Positions 593 to 51,854 of a DNA stretch of 64,000 nucleotides are shown here, in pieces. Source of the DNA: an uncultured Clostridia bacterium (lineage in GTDB: Bacteria > Bacillota > Clostridia > Oscillospirales > Ruminococcaceae); the NCBI GenBank assembly GCA_947627985.1, contig CANQYD010000003.1, positions 24,108 through 88,107 on the forward strand, written 5' to 3'. The translations under genes and the position numbers were made by a program. Under the pieces are notes generated by a model. It was not told where the DNA came from. It searched no databases and saw only the letters and a list, made by a program, of their open reading frames with translations. Numbering within the stretch: the stretch's first letter is position 1; the number at the start of each line of letters is the position of its first letter.

Positions 593-839
593 GGCTATGA
601 CAAAGACGGGACGCCGGAAAAATCGCCTCGAAGAGAGCGGAAGATTGCTGGGACTTCCGCAGGCGCTCGGCAGTCCGGATCACTTTCGAGCCGGAGCTCC
701 GAAATATTAAGGGCTCTCGCGTCCGCGCGTTACAGCGGAAGGCTTTTTATGAGCCGTTAAGAGGCAGGCTTTTTGTCTGCAATTTGAGTGGTACCGCGGG
801 ATATTCTCGTCTCAAAGAAATTCTTTGGGGCGATTTTTT
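593..839 (+). promoter_or_regulatory. T-box riboswitch leader, specifier read as AUC (Ile)
   Basis: K-turn 5' half GGCUAUGACAAAG (593-605) pairs with CUUUCGAGCC (683-692). AGAGAG bulge and distal hairpin present. T-box AATTTGAGTGGTACCGCGG at 781-799. Terminator hairpin plus T-run at 807-839. ATC-A at 679-682 sits in the specifier position. Confidence 0.85.
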
Positions 840-883
840 ATTATCTGCCCCGATCACTTCTAAAGCGTAAGGAGAAGAAGCAC

Positions 884-3157
884 ATGAGCAATCAGTCAGT
901 CAACCAGTTAGTCGAAGTCGCCGAGAGAATCCGCGAAATGCGCGAGATCATGGGCTGGACGACAGCCGAAATGGCGGAAAAGACCGAGGTCGCGGAGGAG
1001 GATTATCTTAAGTATGAGAGCGGTCAGGCAGACCTGCCGTTCACATTCATACATAAGTGCGCCCTCGCTTTTGAAATCGACCTCACCGACCTTCTGGAAG
1101 GTCGTTCGGCGGCAAGGCTTTCAAGCTACACCCTCACAAGAAAGGGTCAGGGTCAGGTCACGGCGCATGAAAAGGGCATCGATATCGCCAACTTAGCCCC
1201 CAAATTCCGCGATAAGATCGCCGAGCCGTATTGGGTAAAGTACGACTACATCGAGGCGCAGCAGAATGTCCCGATCCACCTCACCAAGCACTCCGGACAG
1301 GAATTCGACCTCATCATCTCCGGCAGCCTCAAGGTTCAGGTCGGCAGCCATATCGAGATTCTGAACGAGGGCGACTCAATCTACTACAACTCCTCCACAC
1401 CTCACGGAATGATCGCCGTCAACGGTCGCGACTGCGTGTTCGTAGCGGTCGTACTGCCGGGCGAGGACGACACCGAGGAGACCGCAAGGACCTCCCTGAT
1501 TCAGGCTAACCGTCCCAAGAAGGACACCCTCTTAGCCGAGCGCTTTGTCGATTTTATCGAAGATGAAAACGGCAAGCTCATCGACATGAAATTCCACGAC
1601 ACCGATACCTTCAACTTCGGCTTCGACTGCGTTGACGCGATCGCCGATAAATATCCCGATAAGCTCGCGATGATCCACGTCGACAAGCACAAGGTCGAGC
1701 GCCGGTTCACGTTTAAAGATATCAAACGCGCCTCAAATCAGACCGCCAATTACCTGCGTTCGCTCGGAATAAAGCGGGGCGACAAGGTCATGCTGGTCTT
1801 AAAAAGACATTATCAGTTCTGGTTCGCAATGGTGGCGCTGCATAAACTCGGCGCGATCGCGATCCCCGCGACAAATCAGCTCAAGCAGCACGATTTTGAA
1901 TACCGCTACGACAGAGCGGGCGTCTCGGCGATCCTCTGCACCGCCGACGGCGACGTCGCCGAAATTGCCGAAAAGGCGGCGGAAAATTGCCCGACCGTCA
2001 AGACCAAAATCCTCGTGGGCGGCGCAAGAGAGGGCTGGCGCGATTTCGACAACGAATATCAGCTCTATACCGGAAAATTTGAAAGACCCGAGGACTGCTC
2101 CGCAGGTTCCGAGCCGGCGCTCATGTTCTTCACCTCCGGCACCACCGGCAATCCGAAGATGGCTCAGCATGCGCATACATACGCCCTCGGTCACTTCGTC
2201 ACCGCCAAATACTGGCACTGCTGCGAGCGGGACGGACTTCACCTGACGATATCCGACACCGGCTGGGGCAAGTCGCTTTGGGGCAAGCTCTACGGTCAAT
2301 GGCTCTGCGAGGGCGCCGTGTTTGTCTATGATTTCGATAAATTCGACGCGGCGGATATTCTCCCGATGTTTGCAAAATATAATATCACAACATTCTGCGC
2401 GCCTCCGACCATGCTCAGAATGATGATAAAGGAAGATTTATCCATCTTTGACTTAAGCTCTATCCATCACATGACCACCGCCGGAGAAGCGCTCAACCCC
2501 GAGGTCGCGAAGCAGTTCAAGCAGGCGACGGGGCTTGAGATCATGGAGGGCTTCGGTCAGACCGAGACGACGCTCGTCATCGGCAACTTATACGGCGACA
2601 CCCCGAAATACGGCTCGATGGGCAAGGCTTCGCCGCAGTACGATATCGATATTTTGGACCCCGACGGAAACCCCGTGGCGAACGGCGAGGTCGGCGAGAT
2701 ATGCATAAAGACCTCCGACGCGGTCCCGCTCGGGCTGTTTAAGGAGTATTACCTCGACGAGAGGCTCACAAAAGAGGCTTGGCACGACGGATACTATCAC
2801 ACCGGCGACACCGCGTGGCGCGATGAGGACGGGTATTTCTGGTATGTTTCGAGGATCGACGACGTCATCAAGTCCTCGGGATACAGGATCGGTCCGTTTG
2901 AGATCGAGAGCGTCATCATGGAGCTGCCCTATGTGCTTGAATGCGGCGTTTCGGCTGTTCCCGACGAGATCAGGGGGCAGATAGTCAAGGCGAGCATAGT
3001 GCTCACCAAGGGTACCGTCGCCTCGGACGATCTCAAGAAGGAGATTCAGAACTACGTCAAGAGCCACACGGCGCCCTATAAATATCCGCGCGTGATCGTT
3101 TTCAGGGACGATTTGCCGAAGACGATCAGCGGGAAGATTCAGAGGAACAAACTCTGA
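884..3157 (+). CDS. Fusion protein: XRE-type HTH + cupin domain joined to AMP-forming medium/branched-chain acyl-CoA synthetase (MACS-like)
   Basis: ORF 788-3157. Start set to ATG 884 (AAGGAG upstream, after the T-box terminator). HTH (MGWTTAEMAEKTEV), cupin (HSGQEFDLIISG..HGM), then FFTSGTTGNPK, YHTGD, SSGYRIGPFEIE, PKTISGKIQR. Confidence 0.85.
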   Translation: MSNQSVNQLVEVAERIREMREIMGWTTAEMAEKTEVAEEDYLKYESGQADLPFTFIHKCALAFEIDLTDLLEGRSAARLSSYTLTRKGQGQVTAHEKGIDIANLAPKFRDKIAEPYWVKYDYIEAQQNVPIHLTKHSGQEFDLIISGSLKVQVGSHIEILNEGDSIYYNSSTPHGMIAVNGRDCVFVAVVLPGEDDTEETARTSLIQANRPKKDTLLAERFVDFIEDENGKLIDMKFHDTDTFNFGFDCVDAIADKYPDKLAMIHVDKHKVERRFTFKDIKRASNQTANYLRSLGIKRGDKVMLVLKRHYQFWFAMVALHKLGAIAIPATNQLKQHDFEYRYDRAGVSAILCTADGDVAEIAEKAAENCPTVKTKILVGGAREGWRDFDNEYQLYTGKFERPEDCSAGSEPALMFFTSGTTGNPKMAQHAHTYALGHFVTAKYWHCCERDGLHLTISDTGWGKSLWGKLYGQWLCEGAVFVYDFDKFDAADILPMFAKYNITTFCAPPTMLRMMIKEDLSIFDLSSIHHMTTAGEALNPEVAKQFKQATGLEIMEGFGQTETTLVIGNLYGDTPKYGSMGKASPQYDIDILDPDGNPVANGEVGEICIKTSDAVPLGLFKEYYLDERLTKEAWHDGYYHTGDTAWRDEDGYFWYVSRIDDVIKSSGYRIGPFEIESVIMELPYVLECGVSAVPDEIRGQIVKASIVLTKGTVASDDLKKEIQNYVKSHTAPYKYPRVIVFRDDLPKTISGKIQRNKL

Positions 3158-3740
3158 TAGAAGGCAGAATGTCAGAAGTCAGATGTCAGATTCTGCACTC
3201 AGCCTTAAACGAGACAAGTCAAAAAGGTTTTGCCCCGCTTTTCCTAAAAAAGCGGGCGGGGTCGAGGGGCAGAGCCCCTCGTCGCTCGTCGCAACGAGCG
3301 AAATCCCCAAGCAAGAGGACGGCGGAAGCCGTCGTCTTGCTTAAATCGATTCTAAGCGCAGGAGGGGGGAAATGAAAACAGTCCGGTGGACTGTTTTCAT
3401 CGGGGGAACCCTCGCCGGGGGTTCCCCCAACAAAAAACCGGCGACGAAGTCGCCCGGGAGCCGAGCGAAGCGAGGCTCATAAGCCCCTCCCCTCTCAGGG
3501 GAGGGGTTGGGGTGGGGTCAAAGCCGGAGGGGTGTGGGGAACCCTGCAAGGGTGCCCCACAGCTCGGAAAGGGGTGAGCAGAAGCTGGTTTTGTTGCCAA
3601 TCGCACTTCGCAATCAAAAACGTGGGATTGCTCGTGCTCTTGGACAAAACCCCGCAGGGGTTGTCCCCAATAGCAGCAGGCTTTTAAAAATTGAAAAGCC
3701 CAAATATCTCTCGCGCCGCTTTAAATCACTAAATCCACCT
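3158..3740 (+). repeat. Type I mosaic hairpin element (modules heptamer(rev)-E-C-B-F-A-D)
   Basis: E module 3211-3349, C 3372-3428, B 3440-3454, F 3484-3517, A 3522-3562, D 3578-3668. Each module recurs at 7.1, 12.4, 16.3(rev), 26.0 and 45.1 kb. Confidence 0.9.
3498..3517 (+). other. Canonical G-quadruplex motif
   Basis: GGGG A GGGG TT GGGG T GGGG; first two runs also pair with CCCCTCCCC at 3484-3492. Confidence 0.7.
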
Positions 3741-7057: not shown

Positions 7058-7320
7058 AAGGTTAATTAGCGCTTGAGCTGTGTAAGAGACAAGTCAAAAA
7101 GTTCGCCAGCCTTTCAAGGCTGCGGGGTCAAGGGGCGGCGCCCCTTGTCGCGCGTCGCAACGCGCGAAATCCCAAGCAAGAGGACGGCGTGAGCCGTCGT
7201 CTTGCGCATATCGGTCAAAAGAGGGCGACGAAGTCGCCCGAAGCCGGAGGGGTGTGGGGAACCCTGCAAGGGTGCCCCACAGAGCCGAGCGAAGCGAGGC
7301 TCAAAAAGCCCCTCCCCACC

Positions 7321-7340
7321 GGGGAGGGGTTGGGGAGGGG
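7321..7340 (+). other. Canonical G-quadruplex motif
   Basis: GGGG A GGGG TT GGGG A GGGG, preceded by CCCCTCCCC-ACC (7309-7320). Confidence 0.7.
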
Positions 7341-7528
7341 AAAGCCGGAGGGGGTTTGGGGGAACCCCGCAGGGGTGCCCCCACAGCCCGGAAAGGGGTA
7401 TGGGGAAAACCCGCAGGGGTTGTCCCCAATAGCAGGAGGCATTAAAAACTGCAAAGCCCAAATATCTCTCACATCGCTTTAAAGCATTACAGCCGAGCGA
7501 AGCGAGGCTCGAAAAGCCCCTCCCCACC

Positions 7529-7549
7529 GGGGAGGGGTTGGGGAGGGGG
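7529..7549 (+). other. Canonical G-quadruplex motif
   Basis: GGGG A GGGG TT GGGG A GGGGG, preceded by CCCCTCCCC-ACC. Confidence 0.7.
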
Positions 7550-7874
7550 AAAGCCGGAGGGGGGTTGGGGGGACCCCGCAGGGGTGCCCCACAGCACGGA
7601 AAGGGGTAAGCAGAAGCTGGTTTTGTACCTGCTCGACTGCCCTCGGCGGAAACGCTCGCCTCGGTTGTCTCGCAGACAAAACCCCGCGTCTGCGGGAAAA
7701 CCCCGCAGGGGTTGTCCCCAGCACAACTAATACGTTGTGCGAGACCTAAGACTAAAACATTTTTACAAGGTCAGGACGTGAAGCCGGAGGGGCGTGGGGA
7801 ACCCCGCAGGGGTGCCCCACAGTGCCGAGCGAAGCGAGGCACCCCCCATTCCCCCACTTTTCTTCAAATCCCTC

Positions 7875-7903
7875 TTGAATTTTCCGATTTAGCGTAGTAT
7901 AAT
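7875..7903 (+). promoter_or_regulatory. Promoter of ilvE
   Basis: TTGAAT 7875-7880, 17-nt spacer, TATAAT 7898-7903. Confidence 0.65.
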
Positions 7904-9009: not shown

Positions 9010-9037
9010 CCGGCTGAGGCATACATAATGAAAAGAA

Positions 9038-9069
9038 CCGATCGCTTCTTTTGAGGCGGTCGGCTTTTT
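9038..9069 (+). terminator. Intrinsic terminator of ilvE
   Basis: CCGATCGC..GCGGTCGG stem followed by CTTTTT. Confidence 0.7.
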
Positions 9070-9470
9070 AGGGGGTAGAGGGTAGAAGATGGAGGGGAGA
9101 GTGTTAGATTGGGGGTGAGGGAGGGCTCTAAGGTGGGGAAAGAGGAATTATGTTTGCGGAGATTCTTTGGGAAAAGGTGCTTAGTATCTTACTTTGCTAA
9201 TATGTACTTAGTGTACGATTTAAAAGAAAACCCGCCTTGCCCGATCCTTTGTTAAAAGGTATTCGTGATGTCCTGTATTTAACTCCCAGACCCACCGCGC
9301 CCTTTGGTAAAAGGTATTCGTTCATTTTCCCGGTGGAAAATGAACTCATGCTATTTGAAGTAGACCCCTCCCCCGGCATACCTTGCGCAAAGCTATAAGT
9401 AAAGCGAGCCCCCTCCCCCTAAAAAGGGGGAGGGGGCTCGGGGTAGGGGTATGAAAAATCAGCAGAAAGC
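9060..9470 (+). repeat. Partial Type I mosaic (G-rich heptamer-complement tract, G module x1.5, F module)
   Basis: GTTAAAAGGTATTCG.. at 9251 and 9306. Hairpin GTTCATTTTCC-CGGT-GGAAAATGAAC at 9320-9345. F/G4 at 9408-9449. Matches 12975-13128 and 45405-45557. Confidence 0.8.
9426..9449 (+). other. G-quadruplex motif
   Basis: GGGGG A GGGGG CTC GGGG TA GGGG preceded by complementary CCCCCTCCCCC. Confidence 0.65.
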
Positions 9471-9569
9471 ATTCTGCCTCAATCATAGGTTGTAATTAGA
9501 TGGAAGGCTTGCTTCAGGGCTTGGCGCCCCTGCCGACCCTCGATAGAAGCAGTAGGCAAAAGATAAAAA

Positions 9570-9604
9570 TCTGACCTCTGACTTCTAACCTCTGTCCTCT
9601 GTGC
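9570..9604 (+). repeat. CT-rich heptamer array (5 units)
   Basis: TCTGACC TCTGACT TCTAACC TCTGTCC TCTGTGC. Confidence 0.8.
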
Positions 9605-9611
9605 GACCAAC

Positions 9612-9704
9612 GGGAGCACGGGGCGAAGCCCCGCTGCCGCAGGCAGCGCGCCGACGCTTCGCGTCGGCGGTGCGACTTCGTCGCACGGGCTTCGCCCTGC
9701 TCCC
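9612..9704 (+). repeat. Clamped triple-hairpin module with extra outer stem
   Basis: GGGAGCA (9612) / TGCTCCC (9698). Clamp GGGCGAAGCCC 9621-9631 / GGGCTTCGCCC 9687-9697. Hairpins GCTGCC-GCA-GGCAGC, CGCCGACGC-TTC-GCGTCGGCG, GTGCGAC-TTC-GTCGCAC. Confidence 0.85.
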
Positions 9705-9865
9705 CGCCCGCACCTTTTTACAGACTCCGGTAGTCGCACCCCCACGCACCCCCCGCTTCCCTCTCTCGCCCCTCTCAGAACCACTCGGCGCAAGCTGCAC
9801 CCCTTGCCGCTCCCTTCATTCCCCGCAAAGCAAAACCCCGTCGCAGATAACCTCAAGCCACAACC

Positions 9866-11500: not shown

Positions 11501-12211
11501 ATGACTAAGAAGATTCTTGCTGCCATCGTCGCAGTGATGATGGTACTCGCACTCAGCGTCACCGCTTTTGCCGCGTCTATCGACCTCGTCGATGGCTGCG
11601 TTGCCAACAATGACGGCGAATTCGTCGTTGCCGACGGTTCCGTAACTTCCAGCGGCACCAGCTTCAGCGTTAAGCTTGCCGAGGCTGTTCCGGACGGAGA
11701 CACCGTTACCGTTCACATCAAGGGCTCTTCCGACGGCGACTTCAGAGTATGGCTTGCCGCAGGTACTGCCACCTTCTCCAACGAGCCTCTTTGGAAGGCT
11801 TCCGAGCAGGGCGTCACCACTCCCGGCGAGTTCGACGTCACCTTTGATCTTACCGCTTTCCCGAAGGACGGAACCGGCACTGCCGCAGACTGCATCATGT
11901 TCAAGGCTCCTTCCTACGACTCCAAGCTCTCCAACTTCAAGCTGACCTTCCTCTCCATCAATGGCGACGAGGCTCCTGCTGCCGAGGCTGAGGCTGAGGA
12001 AGCTCCCGCCGAGGCTGAGGCTGAAGCCGAGCCCGAGGAAGCTCCCGCTGAGGCTGCCGAGGAGACCACTGCTGAGGCTCCCGCAGAGGCTGAGACCACT
12101 GCCGAGGCTCCTGCCGAGACCGAGACCAAGGCTCCTGCCACCGGTCTTGCCCTCGCCGTAGTTCCCGCAGTCATGGCTCTTGCTGCCGTTGCAGTTTCCA
12201 AGAAGCACTGA
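11501..12211 (+). CDS. Small secreted surface protein, paralog 1 (signal peptide, beta-rich domain, EAPAE linker, PxTG-type C-terminal sorting signal)
   Basis: MTKKILAAIVAVMMVLALSVTAFA ... ETKAPATGLALAVVPAVMALAAVAVSKKH. Confidence 0.85.
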   Translation: MTKKILAAIVAVMMVLALSVTAFAASIDLVDGCVANNDGEFVVADGSVTSSGTSFSVKLAEAVPDGDTVTVHIKGSSDGDFRVWLAAGTATFSNEPLWKASEQGVTTPGEFDVTFDLTAFPKDGTGTAADCIMFKAPSYDSKLSNFKLTFLSINGDEAPAAEAEAEEAPAEAEAEAEPEEAPAEAAEETTAEAPAEAETTAEAPAETETKAPATGLALAVVPAVMALAAVAVSKKH

Positions 12212-12257
12212 TTTTAACGACAGGCGATAACAGAAAATAAGTCGTAAAAAACTTCCG

Positions 12258-12292
12258 GAAAGGACCCCCGCGCAGGGGGTTCTTTCTTTTTA
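12258..12292 (+). terminator. Intrinsic terminator of paralog 1
   Basis: 12-bp stem GAAAGGACCCCC / GGGGGTTCTTTC, loop GCGCA, then TTTTT. Confidence 0.8.
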
Positions 12293-12839
12293 GGGGTTAG
12301 GGGATAGATGATTAGAGGATAGAGATATGCGACAGGGCTTGCGGGACAAAGCGGGGTCTGAGGGGAGGGGGAGGACAGGATCTTCGTCTTCCCCGAGTTG
12401 AGACAAGGCAAAAAGGTTTTGCCCCGCTTTTCCTCAAAAAGCGGGCGGGGTCGAGGGGCGGCGCCCCTCGTCGCCCGTCGCAACGGGCGAAATACTTTAA
12501 GCAAGAGGACGCTGTAAAGCGTCGTCTTGCTTTTATCGTTCAAAAGAGGGCGACGAAGTCGCCCGAGAGCCGGAGGGGTGTCAGCAGAAGCTGGTTTTGT
12601 AACCAATCGCACTTCGCAATCGTAAACGATTGATTGCTCGTGCTCTTGGACAAAACCCCGCGTCTGCGGGAACCCCGCAGGGGTGCCCCACAGCCGGAGG
12701 GAGTATGGGGGAACCCTTGCAAAGGGATCCCCCAACAAAAACCGGCGACGAAGTCGCCCGGAGCCGCGCGAAGCGAGGCTCGAGCCCCCTCTCCCTTGGG
12801 AGAGGGGGTTGGGGGTGAGGGTGAAAGCCCCTCCCCACC

Positions 12840-12859
12840 GGGGAGGGGCTGGGGAGGGG
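12840..12859 (+). other. Canonical G-quadruplex motif
   Basis: GGGG A GGGG CT GGGG A GGGG after CCCCTCCCC-ACC. Confidence 0.7.
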
Positions 12860-13102
12860 AAAGCCCGGAAAGGGGGCTTGGGGAAAACCCTGCAAGGGTT
12901 GTCCCCAACATAGTAGCAGCGTAGAAGGACTTATATAACGTCTTAAATATAAATATAGTAGTCCCCGCCCTCTCCTACCCCTTGTTAAAAGGTATTCGTT
13001 CATTTTCCCGCCGGAAAATGAACTCATGCTATTTTAAGCAGACCCCCACCCCCATCGAAATCTGTGCAGACTTATAGTAGAGCGGAGCCCCCTCCCCTAA
13101 AA

Positions 13103-13128
13103 GGGGGGAGGGGGCTTGGGGGTGGGGG
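13103..13128 (+). other. G-quadruplex motif
   Basis: GGGGGG A GGGGG CTT GGGGG T GGGGG after CCCCCTCCCC-TAAAA. Confidence 0.7.
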
Positions 13129-13506
13129 TAAAAGCCGGAGGGGTGTGGGGAACCCCGCAGGGGTGCCCCACTGAGCCCCCTCTCCCTTGGGAGAGGGGCA
13201 AGAGCCGGGGGGCGTGGGGAACCCCGTAGGGGTGCCCCACAGTTGTTGAGCAGAGAGAAAAGATAGTAGCAGAAGATTACCTTTAAGTTTAGGAAAGGGG
13301 GGCTTAGGGGGAAAACCCTTTCCAAAAGGGCTTTTCCCCTCATAAGTCAGAGCCGAATTTTAAAAAATCAGAGCTAACAATTGCCGATTTAAATCGTTAA
13401 ATCTACTACGACGCTCCACTTTGCCCGCATACCCCATTTGAATAGTCCCCCATAATCCCCACCCTCACAATAAATCAAAAAATCCACCCCAAAATGCAAA
13501 AAGCTA

Positions 13507-13535
13507 TTGACAACCCGGAAAATCTGTATTATAAT
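13507..13535 (+). promoter_or_regulatory. Promoter of paralog 2
   Basis: TTGACA 13507-13512, 17-nt spacer, TATAAT 13530-13535. Confidence 0.75.
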
Positions 13536-13588
13536 AACAGTGTAGCTTGCGGGAAACCGCACTAACAAATGAAAACGGAGGATTTTTT

Positions 13589-14128
13589 ATGAAAAAGATT
13601 TTAGCTGTTATCGTAGCCGTCATGATGGCTATGACTCTCGTTATGAGCGTGTCAGCCGACGAGTATGCAGGCGAGGTCCCTGCCGGTTCCGAGTGGTGGT
13701 ATGAGGTCATGATCAAGGACATCATTCCGCTTGAGAACCTTGAGGGTCACTCTTCCATCACTTTCGGCTGCGACTGCAACTTCGCTGCCGGTTATAACGA
13801 AGGCGACACTTGGATTCAGAGAACCGACCTGAGCACCGAGCCCATCACCATCGATCTTACTACCGCTACCATCAACGACGATTCCAAGATCATGCTCCAG
13901 AAGGGCTCTGCCGGTGCTTTCACCATCACCTACACTCTTGATGACGGCGCTGCCGCTCCTGCCGAAGAGACCCCTGCCGAGGCTCCTGCTGAGACCGAAG
14001 CTGAGGCTCCCGCCGCTGAGGAGACTCCCGCCGAGACTGAGACCAAGGCTCCTGCTACCGGTCTTGCCCTCGCTGTAGTTCCCGCCGTCGTGGCTCTTGC
14101 CGCTGTCGCGGTTTCCAAGAAGCACTAA
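13589..14128 (+). CDS. Small secreted surface protein, paralog 2
   Basis: ORF 13547 trimmed to ATG 13589 (GGAGGA upstream); MKKILAVIVAVMMAM.. ; C-terminus ETKAPATGLALAVVPAVVALAAVAVSKKH. Confidence 0.85.
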   Translation: MKKILAVIVAVMMAMTLVMSVSADEYAGEVPAGSEWWYEVMIKDIIPLENLEGHSSITFGCDCNFAAGYNEGDTWIQRTDLSTEPITIDLTTATINDDSKIMLQKGSAGAFTITYTLDDGAAAPAEETPAEAPAETEAEAPAAEETPAETETKAPATGLALAVVPAVVALAAVAVSKKH

Positions 14129-14243: not shown

Positions 14244-14297
14244 GTTTTCATAGATGCGGTACGCCGCACTAAAAGATGAAATATGGAGGAAATTACC

Positions 14298-14951
14298 ATG
14301 AAGAAAATTCTTGCAATTGCCATAGCCGTCGTTATGGTTATGGCGCTCGCAGTCACCGCTTCCGCAGAGACTATTTACGAGTACACTTCCCCGGTCAAGG
14401 TCGCTTTCGGCTGGACCACCCTTATCCAGAACGGCGACGCCAACGCCACCGACTTCTTTAAGGCGATCGGCACCGAGGGCGCTGTCATCGAGATGATCGC
14501 TACCGACCTTGTCGACGGCGACAGACAGGCTGAGGTCGTTGACGCTTGGTTCCAGATCTGCACTCAGGACACCGTAGGTTGGACTGAGGCTGGCGGTCTC
14601 AAGACCGAGGGTATCGGCGAGACCTACGGCTTCACCGATGAAGGTTATGTCATCACCATTCCCGCCGCAGCTTTCAACGAGATGGTCGTAAACAGCGGCG
14701 TTGATCCCGCCAACCTCTCCATCATTCTCAACGCCGGCGGTTCTTGGGCTAAGTCCGCTTCCAAGATCATTCTGAGAGTTTCCGTTCCCGACGAAGCCGC
14801 CGAGGCTCCCGCAGAAGAGACTCCCGCCGAGGAAGCTCCCGAAGAAGCTCCCGCCGAGACCGAGACCAAGGCTCCTTCCACCGGTATCGCGCTTGCTGTA
14901 ATTCCCGCCGTCATGGCTCTTGCAGCTGTTGCCGTTTCCAAGAAGCACTAA
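14298..14951 (+). CDS. Small secreted surface protein, paralog 3
   Basis: ORF 14283 trimmed to ATG 14298 (GGAGGA upstream); MKKILAIAIAVVMVMALAVTASA; C-terminus ETKAPSTGIALAVIPAVMALAAVAVSKKH. Confidence 0.85.
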   Translation: MKKILAIAIAVVMVMALAVTASAETIYEYTSPVKVAFGWTTLIQNGDANATDFFKAIGTEGAVIEMIATDLVDGDRQAEVVDAWFQICTQDTVGWTEAGGLKTEGIGETYGFTDEGYVITIPAAAFNEMVVNSGVDPANLSIILNAGGSWAKSASKIILRVSVPDEAAEAPAEETPAEEAPEEAPAETETKAPSTGIALAVIPAVMALAAVAVSKKH

Positions 14952-15154: not shown

Positions 15155-15212
15155 ACAATTATGGTTACGCTGACAAATAGCGCGACTAATTAAAGTTATG
15201 GAGGAATATTTT

Positions 15213-15938
15213 ATGAAGAAAATTCTTGCGATCGTCGTCGCTATGATGATGGTCATGGCTCTTTCGGTAAGCATTTTCGCTGACGATATCGACGTATCCG
15301 GCATGGACGTTGCTTTCGAGTGGACCGAAGGCAAGGCTGCACATGACTGGTGGACTGCCAAGGACGTTTTCAGCGCTGACGATTACGCCAAGTTTGTCGA
15401 GGCTCTCGGCATGGACGGCGCTGTCGTTGAAGTCGCCGGCAACAACCCCGGTGCAGGCGGAGCGATGACCAACTTCAACTTTGACTGGGACGGTCACGGC
15501 ATTCTGATGGCCGGCGACGGTCAGTATCCTATGGGCGATTTCGATTGCTTCGCTTCCATGGATCAGCTCAGAGCTGACGGCAAGGTTCCGGATACTATCG
15601 ACAACGTAATTCTTCAGTTCAACATCTATCAGGATGAGACTGACGTAACCGTTTCCAAGGTTGCCGTTTATGTTCCTGCCGGTGCTGCTCCCGAGGCTGA
15701 GGCTGAGGCTGAGGAAACTCCCGCCGAGACCGAGGAAGCTCCTGCTGAGGCTGAAGCTCCCGCCGAAGAGACCCCTGCCGAGGCTCCTGCTGAGACCGAG
15801 GCTGAGGCTCCCGCCGCTGAGGAGACCCCTGCTGAGGCTCCCGCTGCCGAGACCAAGGCTCCTGCCACCGGTTTAGCTCTCGCGGTTGTTCCCGCTGTCA
15901 TGGCTCTTGCCGCTGTTGCGGTTTCCAAGAAGCACTAA
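15213..15938 (+). CDS. Small secreted surface protein, paralog 4
   Basis: ORF 15198 trimmed to ATG 15213; MKKILAIVVAMMMVMALSVSIFA; C-terminus ETKAPATGLALAVVPAVMALAAVAVSKKH. Confidence 0.85.
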   Translation: MKKILAIVVAMMMVMALSVSIFADDIDVSGMDVAFEWTEGKAAHDWWTAKDVFSADDYAKFVEALGMDGAVVEVAGNNPGAGGAMTNFNFDWDGHGILMAGDGQYPMGDFDCFASMDQLRADGKVPDTIDNVILQFNIYQDETDVTVSKVAVYVPAGAAPEAEAEAEETPAETEEAPAEAEAPAEETPAEAPAETEAEAPAAEETPAEAPAAETKAPATGLALAVVPAVMALAAVAVSKKH

Positions 15939-15985: not shown

Positions 15986-16145
15986 TGATTTTTTGTGATT
16001 TGAGGCGCCCGGGGGTGCCTCTTTTTTTGGGGGAATCTTTCAAGATGGCAAAAGGAGGGGATTTTGCCTCGCTTCGCTCGGCAAACCCAAGGGGAGAACC
16101 CTTTATAAAAGGGTTCTCCCCTATAACCCCTCTCCTAAAATCTTT

Positions 16146-16166
16146 CCCCCTCCCCAACCCCTCCCC
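16146..16166 (-). other. G-quadruplex motif on minus strand
   Basis: Plus strand reads CCCCC T CCCC AA CCCC T CCCC. Confidence 0.65.
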
Positions 16167-16310
16167 GGCGGGGAGGGGCTTTTCGCCTCGCTTCGCTCGG
16201 CTCCCGGGCGACTTCGTCGCCGGTTTTTTGTTGGGGGAACCCCCGGCGAGGGTTCCCCCGATGAAAACAGTCCCCCGGACTGTTTTCATTTCCCCCTCCT
16301 GCGCTAATTA

Positions 16311-16348
16311 TGAAAAAAGCAAGACGACGGCTTACGCCGTCCTCTTGC
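16311..16348 (-). terminator. E4 hairpin acting as intrinsic terminator downstream of proC
   Basis: GCAAGAGGACGGCGTAAGCCGTCGTCTTGC followed by TTTTTT when read on the minus strand. Confidence 0.6.
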
Positions 16349-16500
16349 TTAAGGGATTTCGCCCGTTGCGACGGGCGACCAAGGGCTCCGCCCTTGGATT
16401 CCGCCCGCTTTTTAAGGAAAAGCGGGGCAAAACCTTTTTGACTTGTCTTTTAGATGGTAAACTGCTGAATCTGACTTCTGACCTCTCTGTTTTCTGCCTT

Positions 16501-17295
16501 CTACTTGCCCAGCTCCTTGGACCTTCTCTCGCACGCCCTCGCGGCGTCGATCAGAATCCCCTCGAACCCGCGCTCGTCAAGCACCTTGACCGCCTCGACC
16601 GTCGTGCCGTTCGGGGTGCAGATATTTTTCTTGAGCGTCTCCGCCGGGGTGCCGCTCTCAAGCACCATCTTCGCCGAGCCGAGCACCGTCTGCGCCGCAA
16701 AAATCTCCGCCTGCGCCTCGCTCATGCCAGCCTCGACCGCGTACTTCTTCAGCGCGATGATGAACGCGTACACATACGCGGGACCCGACCCCGACACCGC
16801 CGTCACCGCGTCAAACAGGCTCTCGTCGAGAACCTCAGCCCGCCCGAAGCTCTCAAAAATCCTCGCGATCCCGAGAATTTCCTCCCGGCTGACCATTTCA
16901 TTCCCGCAAATCCCGGTCATGCCCTCGCCCACCATCGCCGGGGTGTTCGGCATGATCCTGATGATCTTCCTGCTGCCAAAAAGTCCCTCAAGCGTCGAAA
17001 TCTTCTTGCCCGCGATGATGGAGCATATTATCGCATTTTGGGGGATAAGTACTGCGATCTCTTTCGCAAGATCGGCTAAGTCCGCAGGTCTGACTGCCAA
17101 AATGACCGCGTCGGTGCCGCTCAGAGCCGCGCCGTAATCATCAAAAACGCTTATTCCAAGGGACTTTGCGTGTTCCTTGGCTTCCGCAGACTTGTCGCAT
17201 ACCCGGATATCCCCCGGCTTTAAAACCTCGGCACGTACAGCGCCCGAGGCTATCGCGGATCCCATGTGCCCGAATCCTATAAAAGTTAAATTCAT
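16501..17295 (-). CDS. proC: Pyrroline-5-carboxylate reductase
   Basis: 264 aa; IGFGHMGSAIASG NAD(P)-binding N-terminus, MPNTPA, SGSGPAY, VCTPNGTT motifs. Confidence 0.9.
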   Translation of the reverse strand: MNLTFIGFGHMGSAIASGAVRAEVLKPGDIRVCDKSAEAKEHAKSLGISVFDDYGAALSGTDAVILAVRPADLADLAKEIAVLIPQNAIICSIIAGKKISTLEGLFGSRKIIRIMPNTPAMVGEGMTGICGNEMVSREEILGIARIFESFGRAEVLDESLFDAVTAVSGSGPAYVYAFIIALKKYAVEAGMSEAQAEIFAAQTVLGSAKMVLESGTPAETLKKNICTPNGTTVEAVKVLDERGFEGILIDAARACERRSKELGK

Positions 17296-25904: not shown

Positions 25905-26320
25905 AAGTTAGAGAAGTAGAGGTTAGAGACTGCTGGCATCCTTCAGAGAGATAAGTCGAAAAGGTTTTGCCCCGCTTTTCCTCAAAAAGCGGGCGAGAGT
26001 CCAGAGGCGAGGAGCCTCTGGTCGCCCGTCGCAACGGGCGAAATCCCAAAGCAAGAGGACGGCGTAAGCCGTCGTCTTGCTTTTTATTATTCAAAAAGCG
26101 CAGGAGGGAGCATAAGCTGGTTTTGTTGCTGCTCGCACTTCGCAATCGTAAACGATTGATTGCTCGTGCTTGCAGACAAAACCCCGCGTATGCGGATGAA
26201 AACAGTCCGGTGGACTGTTTTCATCGGGGGAACCCTCGCCGGGGGTTCCCCCAACAAAAAACCGGCGACGAAGTCGCCCGAAGCCGAGCGAAGCGAGGCT
26301 CAAATGCCCCCTCTCCCTTA
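25902..26320 (+). repeat. Type I mosaic element (heptamer(rev)-E-D-C-B, truncated in F)
   Basis: E 25947-26090, D 26108-26195, C 26198-26255, B 26264-26278, GAGCGAAGCGAG 26286; ends in GCCCCCTCTCCCTTAG. Confidence 0.9.
26051..26086 (+). terminator. E4 hairpin = intrinsic terminator downstream of mscS
   Basis: GCAAGAGGACGGC-GTAA-GCCGTCGTCTTGC followed by TTTTT. Confidence 0.65.
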
Positions 26321-26329
26321 GACGGGGTG

Positions 26330-26516
26330 TCATAAGGAAGTCGAAACTAATTTTTTGAAGCGATGTGACTTCGGTCACGCCGTTTCTCTTTGCTTTTCCG
26401 CTTGCAAGAGCTCGTTTACGGGTATCCTCATAAATCTTGATGAATAGGCGGTCAAGTTCCGCGAGCCTCTTTTCATTTTGTGAGTTTTCGATTAGCATAC
26501 TTAATGATTTCAGCAC
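26330..26516 (-). pseudogene. Possible remnant of a large serine recombinase (DUF4368-like segment)
   Basis: Minus-strand translation ..EKRLAELDRLFIKIYED.. resembles the coiled-coil region of Tn-associated serine recombinases; no catalytic domain; ORF runs into the repeat. Confidence 0.25.
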
Positions 26517-31801: not shown

Positions 31802-32236
31802 ATGAAAATATCCACAAAAGGTCGCTACGCTCTGCGTATGCTTTTCGATCTGGCTGAGCACCGCAGCGAGGGCTATATCGCGCTCAAGGACATCGCCGAG
31901 CGCCAGGGAATATCCAAAAAATACCTCGAGCAGATCGTGCCCGTCCTCAACCGGTCGGACATTCTGAAAACCAACCGCGGCTATCAGGGCGGGTACATGC
32001 TCGCGAAGGACCCGTCGCAGTACACGGTCGGGGAAATACTCCGTCTGACCGAGGGAAGCCTCGCACCGGTTTTTTGTGCCGAGTGCCCGGGGGATTGCAA
32101 GCGAAGCGCCGATTGCCCGACGTTTCCGGTCTGGCAGGGGCTTTACCGGGTGACGAACGAGTACCTCGACGGGATCACGCTTCAGGACATTTTGGACGAC
32201 CACCAAAAGCGCGCCGCGGACAATTACATCATCTGA
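31802..32236 (+). CDS. Rrf2-family transcriptional regulator (CymR/IscR-like, Cys-containing)
   Basis: MKISTKGRYALRMLFDLA; three-Cys cluster region CAECPGDCKRSADC. Confidence 0.85.
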   Translation: MKISTKGRYALRMLFDLAEHRSEGYIALKDIAERQGISKKYLEQIVPVLNRSDILKTNRGYQGGYMLAKDPSQYTVGEILRLTEGSLAPVFCAECPGDCKRSADCPTFPVWQGLYRVTNEYLDGITLQDILDDHQKRAADNYII

Positions 32237-32505
32237 TTTTGGGGGATAGCGCTGCATTTTCCAATTTTCGGAATGTGATGAATTTTCAGAATTTGTACGA
32301 CTTCTTGAAAATCGTTTTTTAACGCAGATTGATATATTATCATATATATCTTTTTCTTTATATATATCTATAAAGCCTTTATTATAGCCATATATTATTA
32401 TCTTAAAAAGATTGTTCAAATAATTTGTGTTGATAATTTATAATATTTCTCAAAATCACGATTACCCTGTAAATTCTGAAAATTCTGCATATTCCGGAAT
32501 ATGGT

Positions 32506-32601
32506 AATTCAGAGGATAGAGAGTCGGAAGATAGAGGATCAAATATTTTTATCCAAGTTTTCCAAATTCTATCTTCTACCCTCTATCCTCTAACTTCTAT
32601 T
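32506..32601. repeat. Inverted pair of heptamer arrays
   Basis: 32506-32534 (complement orientation: ..GGATAGA..AGATAGA) and 32567-32601 (TCTATCT TCTACCC TCTATCC TCTAACT TCTATTC); the latter overlaps the cysK stop. Confidence 0.7.
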
Positions 32602-33526
32602 CCGCGAACATCGGGGTGGAGAGATATCTCTCGCCGGTATCAGGCAGAAGCGCGACGATTATCTTCCCCTTATTCTCGGGGCGCTTGGCAAGCTGCGTTG
32701 CGGCATAAACTGCGGCGCCCGATGAAATGCCGACCAAAAGCCCCTCTTTGCGCGCCAAAGTGCGACCCGTCTCGAATGCTTCCTCGTTCTCGACGGTTAT
32801 TATCTCGTCGTAAACGCCTGTGTTCAGCGTGTCCGGCACAAACCCCGCGCCGATTCCCTGAATTTTATGCGGACCGGACACACCCTTTGAAAGGACCGGG
32901 GAGCCTGCCGGCTCGACAGCGACGACCTTTATATTCGGATTTTTGGACTTGAGATATTCTCCCACGCCGGTCACGGTGCCGCCGGTTCCCACGCCCGCAA
33001 CGAAAATGTCAACCTTTCCATCGGTGTCCTCCCAAATCTCGGGACCGGTGGTTTTTCTGTGGATATCGGAATTCGCGGGGTTGGTAAACTGGCTCGGGAT
33101 AAAGCTGTTCGGGGTTGCCTCGGCGAGCTCCTGAGCCTTTGCAATCGCGCCCTTCATTCCCTTTGCGCCATCGGTCAAGACAAGCTCCGCGCCGTATGCC
33201 TTAAGAAGATTTCTGCGCTCAATGCTCATCGTCTCGGGCATCGTGAGGATGATTTTATATCCCCTCGCCGCAGCCACTGCCGAAAGCCCAATCCCGGTGT
33301 TGCCGCTGGTCGGCTCAATGATGACCGAATCCGGCTTCAAAAGTCCCTTTGCCTCGGCGTCGTCGATCATCGCCCGGGCGATCCTGTCCTTGACGCTCCC
33401 GGCGGGGTTGAAATACTCAAGTTTGCCGTAAACCGTCGCGCCTAAATTCTTTTCTTTGATGTAGTTTGTGAGCTTTAAAAGCGGCGTTCTGCCGATAAGG
33501 TCGGTGATTCTATCGTATGTTTTCAT
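32597..33526 (-). CDS. cysK: Cysteine synthase A (O-acetylserine sulfhydrylase)
   Basis: ORF to 33595 trimmed to ATG 33526 (AAAGGAG upstream); [29 protein letters not shown]. Confidence 0.9.
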
Positions 33527-33657
33527 AAGTTTTGCTCCTTTCAAAATTGCGCAATATTTGTTAATAATTGATTGTAATACCGTTCGCGGCGACATCGTTT
33601 GAAGATCATCATAATGTGCTCCTCCAAAAGCATATATAGCCTATTGATTATATAGGC

Positions 33658-33686
33658 ATTATATCACCGCGCGCCCCGTATGTCAA
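33658..33686 (-). promoter_or_regulatory. Promoter of cysK
   Basis: Minus strand TTGACA (33686-33681), 17-nt spacer, TATAAT (33663-33658); palindrome GCCTAT-N7-ATAGGC at 33639-33657 immediately downstream. Confidence 0.75.
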
Positions 33687-33722
33687 TATCAAAAATAAAA
33701 ATCCGCTTTTTTAACAGTTACT

Positions 33723-33751
33723 ATTGACAATGGCGGGGTAAATATGTATAA
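33723..33751 (+). promoter_or_regulatory. Consensus promoter in front of a truncated gene
   Basis: TTGACA 33723-33728, 17-nt spacer, TATAAT 33746-33751. Confidence 0.7.
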
Positions 33752-33805
33752 TACATATAATGCCGATAGGTTTAATATTAAGGCTAAAAAGGAGACGTGA
33801 TAAAA

Positions 33806-33916
33806 ATGTCAAAAAATTTAACGAGAGACGAAGCGTGGGAGCTTTTGCAAAAGTGGAATCAGGAGCCGTTTCATCTTAAACACGCGGTTACGGTATCATA
33901 CCTCGTTAAATCCTGA
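33806..33916 (+). pseudogene. Truncated 5' fragment of an HD-domain phosphohydrolase gene (36 codons)
   Basis: GGAG RBS then MSKNLTRDEAWELLQKWNQEPFHLKHAVTV.. (typical HD/HDIG N-terminus), followed by an early stop. Confidence 0.5.
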
Positions 33917-34023
33917 TTTATCATCGAAACAATTATATCAAATTCATTTGAAAAAGTACGTCAAGCTGCTAAATTCCTTCAAAAGCAGGGACTTACTGTT
34001 TCCTGATTCCTACCCGTGACTTC

Positions 34024-34059
34024 AGCTCCGCAACTTTCTGCTTTTTGCGGGGCTTTTTT
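34024..34059 (+). terminator. Intrinsic terminator-like hairpin
   Basis: CCGCAA..TTGCGG stem followed by GGCTTTTTT. Confidence 0.55.
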
Positions 34060-34227
34060 GTTGTGCTCTTTTTTATATCATGACGTATTTTCTTTCACGC
34101 TAAACCTCCTGTTCACACTTGGGGATTGCTTGTGCGGAAGATGATTTTATCATGTCTTATATTATACTATCTTCTGTACAAAATCTACCCCCTATGTGTA
34201 CGATTTTAGGATAGCACTACAAAGTCA

Positions 34228-34270
34228 CCCGGAGCCGAGCGAAGCGAGGCAAAGCCCCCTCTCCCTTGGG
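34228..34270 (+). repeat. Isolated Type I fragment
   Basis: CCCGGAGCCGAGCGAAGCGAGGCAAAGCCCCCTCTCCCTTGGG matches the B-to-F junction of Type I elements. Confidence 0.8.
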
Positions 34271-34440
34271 CATCCCCCCCACTTAAAGCCCCTTACCCGC
34301 CCCACGCTTACAAAACAAATATGCGAGGTATCGGAAATTATCCTTACCTCGCACTTTTTATACACCATTAGGTACTGCAAAAACTTCAAGCATTCAATTG
34401 AACCGATGTTAAAAAGATAAGCAACGCTATAAACGGCGAT

Positions 34441-34959
34441 TCATTTAAACACGATTCTTTTCGGATAATCAAGCATAGTAATCTCAAAGTCCTCAGCGTT
34501 GATTTTTTCCCACATTCCCGAAGCAAATTGAGTTTTCGTCATGACATAGCCAAGGCGAACCGTCTTTTTCTCATCGGGCGCTATTTCTGACTGCCCGATT
34601 TCAAAGCCGTTGATTTTGCTGAAAATATCCATGGCTGCGTCGTTCGACCACGCTCCGCGCTCGGCAGAAAGTTTATAATACGGAAAGCTTACAGTCTCCG
34701 CCGTGTTGTTTAAAACCTCTATTTCTGCGGCTAAAATCAGCTCATCATCATATTTGCGATCCACTCCGAAGGATTCGGGCGAGTCAATTTCGAGTGATAA
34801 CAGTCTGACCTCGCAGCCTGATATTTCGGCAGTTTCGCCGCGGCTTATTTCCAATGTTTCAACCTGCGGAAATTCCCGGTTTACATGATAGATTCTTACA
34901 CCCGCAACGGTTAAAAATATAATCAAAATAATCAACAGACAAATTTTAGTTTTCTTCAC
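34441..34959 (-). CDS. Membrane-anchored extracytoplasmic protein, unknown function
   Basis: 172 aa, N-terminal TM (ICLLIILIIFLTVAGV), beta-rich remainder; overlaps the upstream ABC ATPase gene. Confidence 0.65.
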   Translation of the reverse strand: MKKTKICLLIILIIFLTVAGVRIYHVNREFPQVETLEISRGETAEISGCEVRLLSLEIDSPESFGVDRKYDDELILAAEIEVLNNTAETVSFPYYKLSAERGAWSNDAAMDIFSKINGFEIGQSEIAPDEKKTVRLGYVMTKTQFASGMWEKINAEDFEITMLDYPKRIVFK

Positions 34960-37841: not shown

Positions 37842-37845
37842 ATTT

Positions 37846-45009: not shown

Positions 45010-45029
45010 TAAGATTTTTGGAAAGCCAT

Positions 45030-45622
45030 AGGGGAAGACAAGGCAAGTTTAGGATCAAGCCCTTTTTAAAGGGCTTGCGGAATCCAAGGGCGGAGCCCTT
45101 GGTCGCGCTCCGCAGAGCGCGAAATCCCTGCAAAAAGGACAGCGAAAGCTGTCCTTTTTGCCTTTATCGTTCAAATGAGGGCGACGAAGTCGCCCGAAGC
45201 CGGAGGGGTGTCAGCAGAAGCTGGTTTTGTAGCCAATCGCACTTCGCAATCGTAAACGACTGATTGCTCGTGCTCTTGGACAAAACCCCGCGTCTGCGGG
45301 AACCGTGCAACGGTGCCCCACAGCCGGAAAAGGGGTTTGGGGAAAACCCGGCACGGGTTGTCCCCAACATAGTAGTGGTATCGAACAGTAATTCCCTCCC
45401 GCCCGACCCTTAGTTAAAAGGTATTCGTTCATTTTCCTGCCGGAAAATGAACTCATGTTATTTGAAGCAGACCCCCGCCCCCGTCGAAGTCTGTACAGAC
45501 TTATAGTCGAGCGGAGCCCCCTCCCCCTAAAAGGGGGAGGGGGTCTGGGGGTGGGGGTGAGAGCCGGAGGGTCGTGGGGAACCGTGCAACGGTGCCCCAC
45601 AGCCGAGCGCAGCGAGGCACCC
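45030..45622 (+). repeat. Type I mosaic element (E-B-D-A-G-F-A)
   Basis: E 45036-45168 (divergent stems, same fold), B 45180-45194, D 45205-45300, A 45302-45321, G 45405-45475, F/G4 45518-45557, A 45560-45601. Confidence 0.9.
45533..45557 (+). other. G-quadruplex motif
   Basis: GGGGG A GGGGG TCT GGGGG T GGGGG preceded by CCCCCTCCCCC-TAAAA. Confidence 0.7.
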
Positions 45623-45625
45623 CCC

Positions 45626-50896: not shown

Positions 50897-51062
50897 GGCG
50901 GAGCTTAAAATACGACATCTGATGGCTGAATTTTGGCGGGGTGGGAGATTGGGTACGGGGTTGGGTGCCACTGACGTACCTTGATAGGAGCAGAGGGAAA
51001 AAGATAAGAATCTGTCCTCTGCCTTCTGATATCTGTACTCTGTGCGACCGGAGGGAGCAGGA

Positions 51063-51149
51063 GGGCGAAGCCCCCGGCGACGAAGTCGCCGGCTGCCACG
51101 GCTTCGCCGTGGCAGCGCCCGCGCGCGAGCGCGCGGGCGGGCTTCGCCC
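51063..51149 (+). repeat. Clamped triple-hairpin module (unit A)
   Basis: Clamp 51063-51073 / 51139-51149; GGCGAC-GAA-GTCGCC, GCTGCCACGGC-TTC-GCCGTGGCAGC, GCCCGCGCG-CGAG-CGCGCGGGC. Confidence 0.85.
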
Positions 51150-51836: not shown

Positions 51837-51854
51837 TGTATCACTAATATTAAA

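Follow-up and report, generated by a model that had tools for sequence, protein, structure and literature searches.

The 64,000-nucleotide stretch of contig CANQYD010000003.1 analysed here (hereafter the window), from an uncultured clostridial bacterium of the Ruminococcaceae, repeatedly carries a short motif in which a C-rich arm is followed by two G-rich arms, and the question it raises is which fold these arms have been conserved for. A preliminary description of the locus read the motif as a bistable element alternating between a hairpin and an intramolecular G-quadruplex (G4), and as a bacterial repeat module that had not been described before. The present analysis confirms the observation and supports the interpretation in part: the potential for both hairpin and quadruplex is real, a third fold, the intrastrand triplex, had been missed, and the claim of novelty is refuted. 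At face value the motif would have passed as a new class of bacterial G-quadruplex switch; it actually represents the long-known BoxC/PIT/TMECO type of repeat and, judged by its sequence, is best classified as a class II potential intrastrand triplex (PIT) repeat. The best explanation for the element as a whole, and on balance a probable one, is a triplex-type repeat of BoxC/PIT/TMECO layout which forms one module of long mosaic arrays of small hairpins lying after genes.

All nine copies, eight on the plus strand and one on the minus strand, share the order C-arm, short loop, complementary G-arm, short loop, second G-arm (Table 1). The G-run positions given earlier (3498, 7321, 7529, 9426, 12798, 12840, 13103 and 45533 on the plus strand, 16146 on the minus strand) were all recovered. 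The G-rich 20-nt core GGGGAGGGGTTGGGGAGGGG, with at most one mismatch, occurs five times (3498, 7321, 7529 and 12840 on the plus strand; 16147-16166 on the minus strand) against about 0.01 expected, and the hairpin CCCCTCCCC-N2-6-GGGGAGGGG is likewise found five times where none is expected; a regular-expression scan retrieved the looser copies, at 9426, 12798, 13103 and 45533, as potential quadruplex sequences (PQS) at those exact coordinates. It had been stated correctly that an exact complement precedes the first two G-runs in every copy (the loops being ACC, TCTCA/CTC, TAAAA or GCC), that variants keep this complementarity (CCCCTCCCC/GGGGAGGGG versus CCCCCTCTCCC/GGGAGAGGGGG), and that the variant at 13177 lacks the downstream G-runs. 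In total, the window holds ten pyrimidine/purine hairpins, nine of which are provided with a third arm, always on one strand only.

Table 1. Complete and incomplete copies of the triplex-type motif and the mosaic hairpin arrays of the window
Feature	Coordinates	Strand	Arms (capital tokens), loops and context
Triplex-type motif	3484..3518	+	CCCCTCCCCT ctc AGGGGAGGGG tt GGGGTGGGGT; 10 triads, 0 mismatches
Triplex-type motif, reported copy	7309..7340	+	CCCCTCCCC acc GGGGAGGGG tt GGGGAGGGG
Triplex-type motif	7517..7548	+	arms as in 7309 copy
Triplex-type motif, TAAAA variant	9410..9450	+	CCCCTCCCCCT aaaa AGGGGGAGGGG gctc GGGGTAGGGGT; 1 mismatch
Triplex-type motif, asymmetric arms	12785..12821	+	CCCCCTCTCCC tt GGGAGAGGGGG tt GGGGGTGAGGG
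Triplex-type motif	12828..12859	+	CCCCTCCCC acc GGGGAGGGG ct GGGGAGGGG; 6 nt past 12785 copy
Triplex-type motif, TAAAA variant	13088..13128	+	third arm GGGGGTGGGGG; one mismatch
Pyrimidine/purine hairpin without third arm	13177..13198	+	CCCCTCTCCC tt GGGAGAGGGG; no downstream G-runs
Triplex-type motif	16147..16178	-	CCCCTCCCC gcc GGGGAGGGG tt GGGGAGGGG; in array after minus-strand proC
Triplex-type motif, TAAAA variant	45517..45558	+	CCCCCTCCCCCT aaa AGGGGGAGGGGG tct GGGGGTGGGGGT; 12 triads
Truncated copy	26304..26320	+	C-arm (GCCCCCTCTCCCtt) alone left, at array end
Isolated remnant	34228..34272	+	GAGCGAAGCGAGGC module and C-arm, without G-arms; low-GC region
Array with 3484 motif	3158..3700	+	begins at stop codon of gene 788-3157
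Array with 7309 and 7517 motifs	7058..7860	+	between POR gamma gene and promoter-like site 7875-7903
Array	9010-9480	+	mosaic hairpin array
Array with three motifs and one hairpin-only copy	12212..13350	+	mosaic hairpin array
Array, inverted orientation	16040..16500	-	begins at stop codon of minus-strand proC (16501-17295)
Array	25905-26330	+	mosaic hairpin array
Array with 45517 motif	45010..45625	+	follows gene 43144-45009

Chance expectation was obtained from Markov simulations of order 1, 3 and 5, which preserve up to 6-mer statistics. Against this background the window contains 19 PQS with runs of three or more guanines (G3+) where about 2 are expected, nine with runs of four or more (G4+) against an expectation of 0-0.04 and at most one in simulated windows, and 18 regions with a G4Hunter score of at least 2.0 against 0.8-1.6. 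The nine motif copies score 2.4-3.16 in G4Hunter and all conform to the canonical G-quadruplex motif (four G-runs of at least three, loops of 1-7 nt), with G4+ runs in eight and loops of 1-4 nt. They also fit the class II triplex definition, in which a pyrimidine arm is followed by its Watson-Crick purine arm and this in turn by an antiparallel third arm making G·G, A·A or T·A contacts. A scan for this layout that allowed 8-13 nt per stem, 1-6 nt per loop and no more than one mismatch detected nine motifs in the window, and 150 Markov-simulated windows gave none. The copies lie within the definition (stem 6-15, loop 1-6), their stems measuring 9-12 nt and their loops 2-5 nt, and their third arms follow the triad rule with no mismatch in seven copies and one mismatch in two. 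That the motif is a by-product of low-complexity, G/C-rich spacer composition is scarcely conceivable: the arrays are indeed rich in G-runs and C-runs serving as hairpin stems, but the simulations gave no triplex motifs and at most one G4+-run PQS in 150 windows, the arms co-vary, and the layout recurs across many phyla.

The class concerned is one of four intrastrand triplex motif classes distinguished by Holder 2015 (PMC4666352), in which a 5' pyrimidine arm, a purine arm and a reverse-Hoogsteen arm form C-G·G, T-A·A and T-A·T triads. No class I triplex motif was found in the window. The Escherichia coli representative, TMECO, was known earlier as the BoxC repeat (Bachellier, 1990s) and as the PIT element (Hoyne and Maher 2000, 2002; PMC4666352); its pattern, CCCTCNCCC-N3-6-GGGNGAGGG-N3-GGGNGAGGG, has 3610 occurrences in 262 genomes (PMC4666352) and no match on either strand of the window. 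A TMECO type A query rebuilt from the control oligo of that paper is present in 5426/5426 complete E. coli genomes, at a median of 19 places per genome and unannotated, and BLAST of the segment 7283-7390 against 5426 E. coli genomes yielded a single marginal match, of 45 nt (E = 0.02). On these sequence comparisons the window motif belongs to the same structural class as E. coli BoxC/TMECO, but to a different sequence family. Searches with Rfam covariance models at gathering score matched only two T-box leaders in the window, a search of 12200-13560 with E values up to 1 gave no family at gathering score, and the plasmid collection gave no array match. The marginal match itself falls in the E. 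coli mtlA-mtlD spacer (L265, 150-215), where a BoxC-like copy, GCCCCTCTCCtcacGGAGAGGGtttGGGTGAGGG followed by its C-rich complement, lies directly after a REP element, unannotated in RefSeq, in the same kind of mosaic neighbourhood as that of the window.

The third arm allows the possible folds to be told apart, as each predicts a different one. A duplicated arm should be a direct repeat with A at its centre, a G4 calls for G-runs only, with any loop base between them, and a purine-motif triplex calls for the purine arm in mirror image, any A being faced by A or T. In the asymmetric 12785 copy the purine arm GGGAGAGGGGG is followed by GGGGGTGAGGG, its exact mirror, where direct order would read GGGTGAGGGGG. 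Symmetric arms of the form 4-T-4/4-A-4 are paired with third arms of the form 4-A/T-4, the 5-A-5 arms (5-1-5 type) go with GGGGGTGGGGG, and in the 3484 and 45517 copies the terminal A of the purine arm is met by a terminal T of the third arm. The copies in Ruminococcus metagenome-assembled genomes (MAGs), GGGGGAGGGG and then GGGGTGGGGG, form a mirror again. A cross-phylum test covered 243 sequences (1.57 Mb, duplicates removed, soil metagenome contigs included as extra background). Of the tails on its asymmetric hairpins, 24 agree with the mirror alone, 2 with the direct repeat alone and 64 with both; eight mirror tails are without two G3 runs, which makes a canonical G4 impossible. Further, among the matches listed, the third-arm centre of 137 symmetric cross-phylum copies is T in 92, A in 20 and C in 6, hence T or A in 112, in hosts that are mostly GC-rich. 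As slippage and template switching produce no mirror repeats, this third-arm pattern points to selection on, or recognition of, triplex geometry. On comparative rather than biophysical grounds, the mirror-versus-direct test supports triplex geometry as what has been conserved, and it is this geometry that the sequences favour as the constraint.

The breadth of this layout was surveyed with one genome per species, using only the pattern CCCCTCCCC-N2-6-GGGGAGGGG-N-TGGGG, which matched at least 120 loci. The matches listed include Sphingomonadales, Rhizobiales, Caulobacterales, several Gammaproteobacteria, Nostocales, Chloroflexota, Planctomycetota, Bacteroidota and Oscillospiraceae/Ruminococcus MAGs, and almost all of them continue beyond the required pattern with [A/T]GGGG. 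At the sphingomonad loci L011, L061, L067, L068, L071, L081, L087 and L107 the motif (aagCCCCTCCCCTTCAGGGGAGGGGTTGGGGTGGGG) forms inverted doublets with a spacing of about 75 nt, frequently right past stop codons and with third arms complementary to the C-arms of the partner, in a REPIN-like layout. A metagenome scan with GCGAAGCGAGGC-N1-14-CCCTCYCC, which joins the module upstream of the motif to the C-arm and was intended to furnish an unbiased family set, was discarded, as nearly all its matches were chance ones from soil contigs of high GC content.

The preliminary reading, a hairpin/G-quadruplex bistable element of single-stranded DNA or 3' untranslated RNA whose balance, governed by K+, temperature or helicases, alters transcription, decay or replication, has to be considered in the light of the same third arms. 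Its premise of two exclusive folds is sound to the extent that the same nucleotides can in principle give either a 9-12 bp hairpin or a four-tetrad quadruplex; what it overlooked is the triplex. Hairpin, triplex and G4 are thus best modelled as three competing folds of one strand, and this competition follows from the pyrimidine-purine-purine layout without having to be a design feature in itself. Canonical PQS in 9/9 copies, eight with four G4+ runs, and strong G4Hunter scores speak for the quadruplex, and ion-dependent circular dichroism (CD) changes were reported for the E. coli analogue (Kaplan 2016, PMC5100583). With its approximate G4 term ViennaRNA assigns -45.7 kcal/mol to the four-tetrad form, as against about -12 (DNA) or -25 (RNA) for the hairpin, and puts G4 over hairpin in 7/9 copies, although these G4 energies are crude. 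Additionally, with arrays co-oriented with upstream genes, the G-rich strand would be the RNA sense strand, and in RNA the choice is left between hairpin and G4. However, the G4 leaves unexplained the mirror register, the preference for A or T over C at the centre (112 versus 6, among the matches listed) and the terminal T opposite A, and the eight related mirror tails have too few G-runs to form it. Further, the 12785 copy retains the mirror while its G4 is weakened, and TMECO DNA oligos, with three-G runs, melt at 70-82 C and are by nuclear magnetic resonance (NMR) a triplex, not a quadruplex (PMC4666352). The triplex reading, by comparison, accounts for the mirror-image second G-arm, for A being faced by A or T, for the terminal T that faces a terminal A and for the co-variation of all three arms, none of which the G4 does, and we regard the hairpin/G4 switch as rather unlikely.

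The surroundings of the motif bear on which strand, and which nucleic acid, would fold. The arrays are 400-1100 nt long and consist of at least ten different small hairpin modules in a largely fixed order. Their direction is that of the gene ending just upstream in 7/7 cases, the single inverted array following the minus-strand proC; hence, all nine motifs carry the G-rich strand as the sense strand. Five of the seven begin at the stop codon with no terminator between, and two after a terminator-like hairpin (one at 9038-9063). Stems of neighbouring modules show compensatory double changes in 10 of 29 pairs and a one-sided change of the G-U type in only one, and 30 of 86 small hairpin loops are GNA triloops or GNRA tetraloops on the sense strand, as opposed to none on the antisense strand. 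Seventeen of these 30 are C(GNA)G triloops, a loop type reported by Hirao, Yoshizawa and colleagues to give DNA minihairpins of exceptional stability, such as d(GCGAAGC). These sense-strand loops indicate that the folding strand is the G-rich sense strand. With their palindromic units in extragenic mosaic clusters the arrays correspond to what defines REP/BIME elements, and together they look like a BIME-like family that has not been described.

The same array setting admits an alternative at the RNA level, namely a hairpin in the 3' untranslated region (UTR) which, like REP, blocks 3'-5' exonucleases, with the second G-arm as a spare pairing register or spacer. It fits the five arrays that start at a stop codon, the shared direction of all arrays and upstream genes, and the GNRA tetraloops in 6/7 copies of one module; in folding without a G4 term, moreover, the C-arm frequently takes the second G-arm as its partner, at almost the same energy. 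However, a spare register should be a direct repeat with A at the centre, and what is observed is the mirror rule with T as the commoner base. Further, the special loops are mostly C:G-closed GNA triloops, typical of DNA rather than RNA, and G-U intermediates are almost absent from the co-varying stems. A protective 3' UTR hairpin as the explanation of the motif is therefore distinctly unlikely in our view. A role of the arrays as structured 3' UTRs is possible in itself; since purine-motif triplexes do not form with RNA strands (PMC4666352), the motif would then act only as a hairpin or an RNA quadruplex.

In some array modules, including some copies of the motif, a hairpin read in antisense is followed by a T-run, giving a terminator-like appearance (minus strand, 7309-7329, 3440-3454, 7223-7239, 7682-7697 and 12744-12758; the T-run is not in all copies). 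From their sequence such modules could enable the arrays to stop transcription entering from downstream. Three other roles were discarded. An intrinsic terminator on the sense strand does not fit a hairpin that runs into TTGGGG with no U-run, the T-run being antisense only and confined to some copies. A pyrimidine-motif triplex or i-motif on the C-rich strand is unlikely, as the T in most third arms puts A in the would-be Hoogsteen strand and runs of C+ triads also require acidic pH. Shine-Dalgarno (SD)/anti-SD mimicry (GGAGG/CCTCC) was set aside as the commoner third arm, GGGGTGGGG, is without the SD core.

A different account of the third arm is suggested by the TAAAA variants, namely that it is the 3' strand of a larger Watson-Crick structure, either a three-way junction or an inverted doublet, and resembles a triplex arm incidentally. 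In 3/3 of these copies the third arm is complementary to an upstream CCCCC[A/G]CCCCC or CCCCTCCCCC, with a change from A-T to G.T: CCCCTCCCCC at 9366-9375 is also able to pair with the third arm of the 9410 copy, CCCCCACCCCC at 13044-13054 is the Watson-Crick complement of that of the 13088 copy, and CCCCCGCCCCC at 45474-45484 pairs with that of the 45517 copy through one G.T. The tail of the TAAAA variant may be predicted to close a three-way junction as well, and sphingomonad and E. coli copies are often inverted doublets whose third arms can pair with the partner's complement. Yet the copies at 3484, 7309, 7517, 12785, 12828 and 16147 have no complementary C-arm nearby, and pairing to a separate arm gives no cause for the third arm to mirror the purine arm, leaving this a very improbable explanation for the motif as a whole. 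The TAAAA variants belong to a 198-nt repeat unit (family D5; 9296-9493, 12974-13171 and 45403-45600), in which the motif is accompanied by a GTTCATTTTCC...GGAAAATGAAC hairpin, a small palindrome and a C-rich arm; this arm complements the third arm of the motif, the central position being A-T, G.T or a bulged T-A.

The triplex-type repeat would most likely fold as follows. The G-rich sense strand would turn single-stranded as DNA during transcription, in which it is the non-template strand, or during replication, in which it is the lagging-strand template. The first G-arm would then pair with the C-arm and the second would fold back into the major groove, antiparallel to the first, with G·G:C triads and, at one or two positions, A·A:T or T·A:T. 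The quadruplex potential conferred by four G-runs would then be a by-product of having the G-arm twice, in mirror image and interrupted each time by a single A or T. Folding on single-stranded G-rich sense DNA is favoured because of the polarity, the compensatory changes, the sense-strand loops and the exclusion of purine-motif triplexes from RNA. In E. coli the repeats cause polymerase arrest in vitro and have flanks that are more variable between strains (PMC4666352); by this literature the consequence would be a very stable fold-back able to stall DNA polymerases, marking rearrangement-prone spacers rather than constituting a tuned regulatory switch. Layout, mirror rule, strand specificity and enrichment are established by the sequence itself; triplex formation in the present organism, and any cellular effect, we infer.

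Several observations weigh against the triplex as the operative fold. The G-runs are 4-5 long with 1-2-1 loops (3 in E. coli), which strongly favours a quadruplex in K+, and ViennaRNA ranks G4 far above the hairpin in the seven copies mentioned, on a scoring that does not extend to triplexes. In E. coli, in vivo dimethyl sulfate (DMS) footprinting was without triplex protection, and there was no in vivo promoter, terminator or polymerase effect (PMC4666352). Additionally, arrays co-oriented with the upstream gene in 7/7 cases are probably transcribed, which fits an RNA role in which a purine-motif triplex is impossible, and the three TAAAA-variant third arms also have a Watson-Crick partner about 55 nt upstream, rendering a triplex unneeded there. 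Finally, the cross-phylum sample was picked with a G-rich pattern and its copies are non-independent.

More speculatively, and with a probability that we would put low, the arrays might be a new strand-specific element of Clostridia-like bacteria in which every module, the triplex/G4 one included, folds as single-stranded DNA, either on the lagging-strand template or, in the wake of RNA polymerase, on the displaced sense strand. It might act as a built-in roadblock for transcription ends, R-loops or replication, or as a recognition scaffold for a mobilising enzyme, and the near-identical element of C-arm, G-arm and mirrored G-arm in Alphaproteobacteria, Cyanobacteria, Chloroflexota, Bacteroidota and Bacillota might then reflect a shared host factor that reads DNA triplexes or four-tetrad quadruplexes.

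Strains were compared through metagenome contigs found by exact-protein look-ups. Short-read contigs of the same organism end at the arrays. Two contigs, L243 (3490-4280) and L247 (4780-5290), contain stretches 100% and 99.4% identical to the window and part from it exactly at the module boundaries 7300 and 16146. Beyond the array they continue with other genes, one with MBOAT and DNA polymerase III delta and the other with a PHP protein and the his operon. Assembly chimerism across shared repeats and genuine rearrangement are equally likely, and this divergence was not used as evidence of instability.

The window also contains a second repeat type, of 285-292-nt units, partly in tandem (3-440, 9483-9708, 50924-51724 and 61830-61990), with GCGACTTCGTCGC and GCCGACGC..GCGTCGGC hairpins, C-rich tail ends and small hairpins of opposite polarity (TTC loops) to those of the first type. 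It lies upstream of promoter-like sites, and two sets are upstream of T-box leaders. The preliminary description had related its C-run tails to the motif as G-runs placed on the opposite strand near promoters. Such tails do exist upstream of promoters, but that at 440-515 stays below a G4Hunter score of 2.0 and none has the layout of hairpin and third arm; among these tails the score of 2.0 is reached on the minus strand only at 51705-51755 and 9736-9773, and 61944-61965 is a G3+ PQS only.

The T-box leaders matched at the Rfam gathering score lie at 588-817 and 51850-52089. One of them precedes a 789-aa open reading frame whose GTG start at 788 overlaps the 3' end of the leader and whose HTH, cupin and AMP-binding domain matches make it an unusual T-box cargo. 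Four adjacent paralogous small genes (11501-12211, 13547-14128, 14283-14951 and 15198-15938) encode C-terminal repeats rich in Ala, Glu, Pro and Thr (DNA repeat families D2, D3 and D9); a Pfam scan of two of the four gave no match. Glycoside hydrolases are among the ten window proteins that were scanned; together with the T-box leaders and the related elements in Oscillospiraceae and Ruminococcus MAGs they suggest an anaerobic clostridial host from gut or rumen. The region 32000-38000, with a G+C content of 44-47% versus about 54% elsewhere, has all its genes on the minus strand and holds the array remnant 34228-34272; from its composition it is possibly an acquired island.

Set beside known systems, the motif loses its claim to be an undescribed bacterial repeat module, as both BoxC/PIT/TMECO (PMC4666352) and a published switch (PMC5100583) precede it. 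With BoxC/PIT/TMECO it shares the order of the arms, the A or T opposite A in the second G-arm, arms of 9-12 nt, a strictly intergenic location with many copies per genome, sometimes beside other palindromic repeats, and the pairing of some copies with a complementary C-arm. It differs in sequence (CCCCTCCCC here versus CCCTCNCCC in E. coli), in its G-runs of 4-5 rather than 3 and second loop of 2-4 nt rather than 3, and in its host, a T-box-bearing clostridial and probably anaerobic bacterium rather than a proteobacterium. Further, it is here a fixed module within mosaic arrays, and 9/9 copies are G-rich on the sense strand of the upstream gene, as opposed to the absence of strand bias in E. 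coli. What is new is thus an example outside Proteobacteria and Cyanobacteria, in a clostridial host and with longer G-runs, together with the strict sense-strand polarity relative to the upstream gene and the mosaic-array setting with strand-specific loops of DNA type. In the literature on BoxC/PIT/TMECO we found no later work that assigns a role; polarity, array setting and mirror test narrow the search for function to the single-stranded G-rich sense strand, at the DNA level, and the window copies supply clean sequences for telling triplex from quadruplex experimentally.

The switch that comes closest to the preliminary reading is that of Kaplan 2016 (PMC5100583), where the E. coli repeats HPG1 and HPG2 were found by G4 prediction and named 'G-quadruplex-Hairpin-Duplex switch'. 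In these repeats hairpin, G4, duplex and antiparallel triplex are in competition, and hairpin and G4 are almost equal in stability, at 71 versus 73 C (PMC5100583). The window motif has the same intergenic location near 3' ends and the same conserved C-rich 5' flank complementary to two of four G-tracts by which that switch was recognized. Judged by layout rather than sequence by sequence, HPG1/HPG2 are apparently the same E. coli repeat class as BoxC/PIT/TMECO, with three-G runs; unlike them, the window copies have four- and five-G runs, so that their G4 should be relatively more stable.

The arrays, in turn, resemble the REP/BIME elements of enterobacteria and pseudomonads (including RAYT-mobilised REPINs) as short palindromic modules clustered after genes in mosaic order, at which short-read assemblies break and in which compensatory changes keep the stems. 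They differ from these in their far greater number of module types, their fixed polarity with respect to the upstream gene and their strongly strand-specific GNA/GNRA loops. No RAYT or other transposase was encountered here, where no search was aimed at one. Finally, the two G-arms form a homopurine mirror repeat of the kind that H-DNA, as a purine-motif (reverse-Hoogsteen) triplex, requires, but unlike in H-DNA the pyrimidine arm is on the same strand, so that one single strand would suffice and no supercoiled duplex would be needed.

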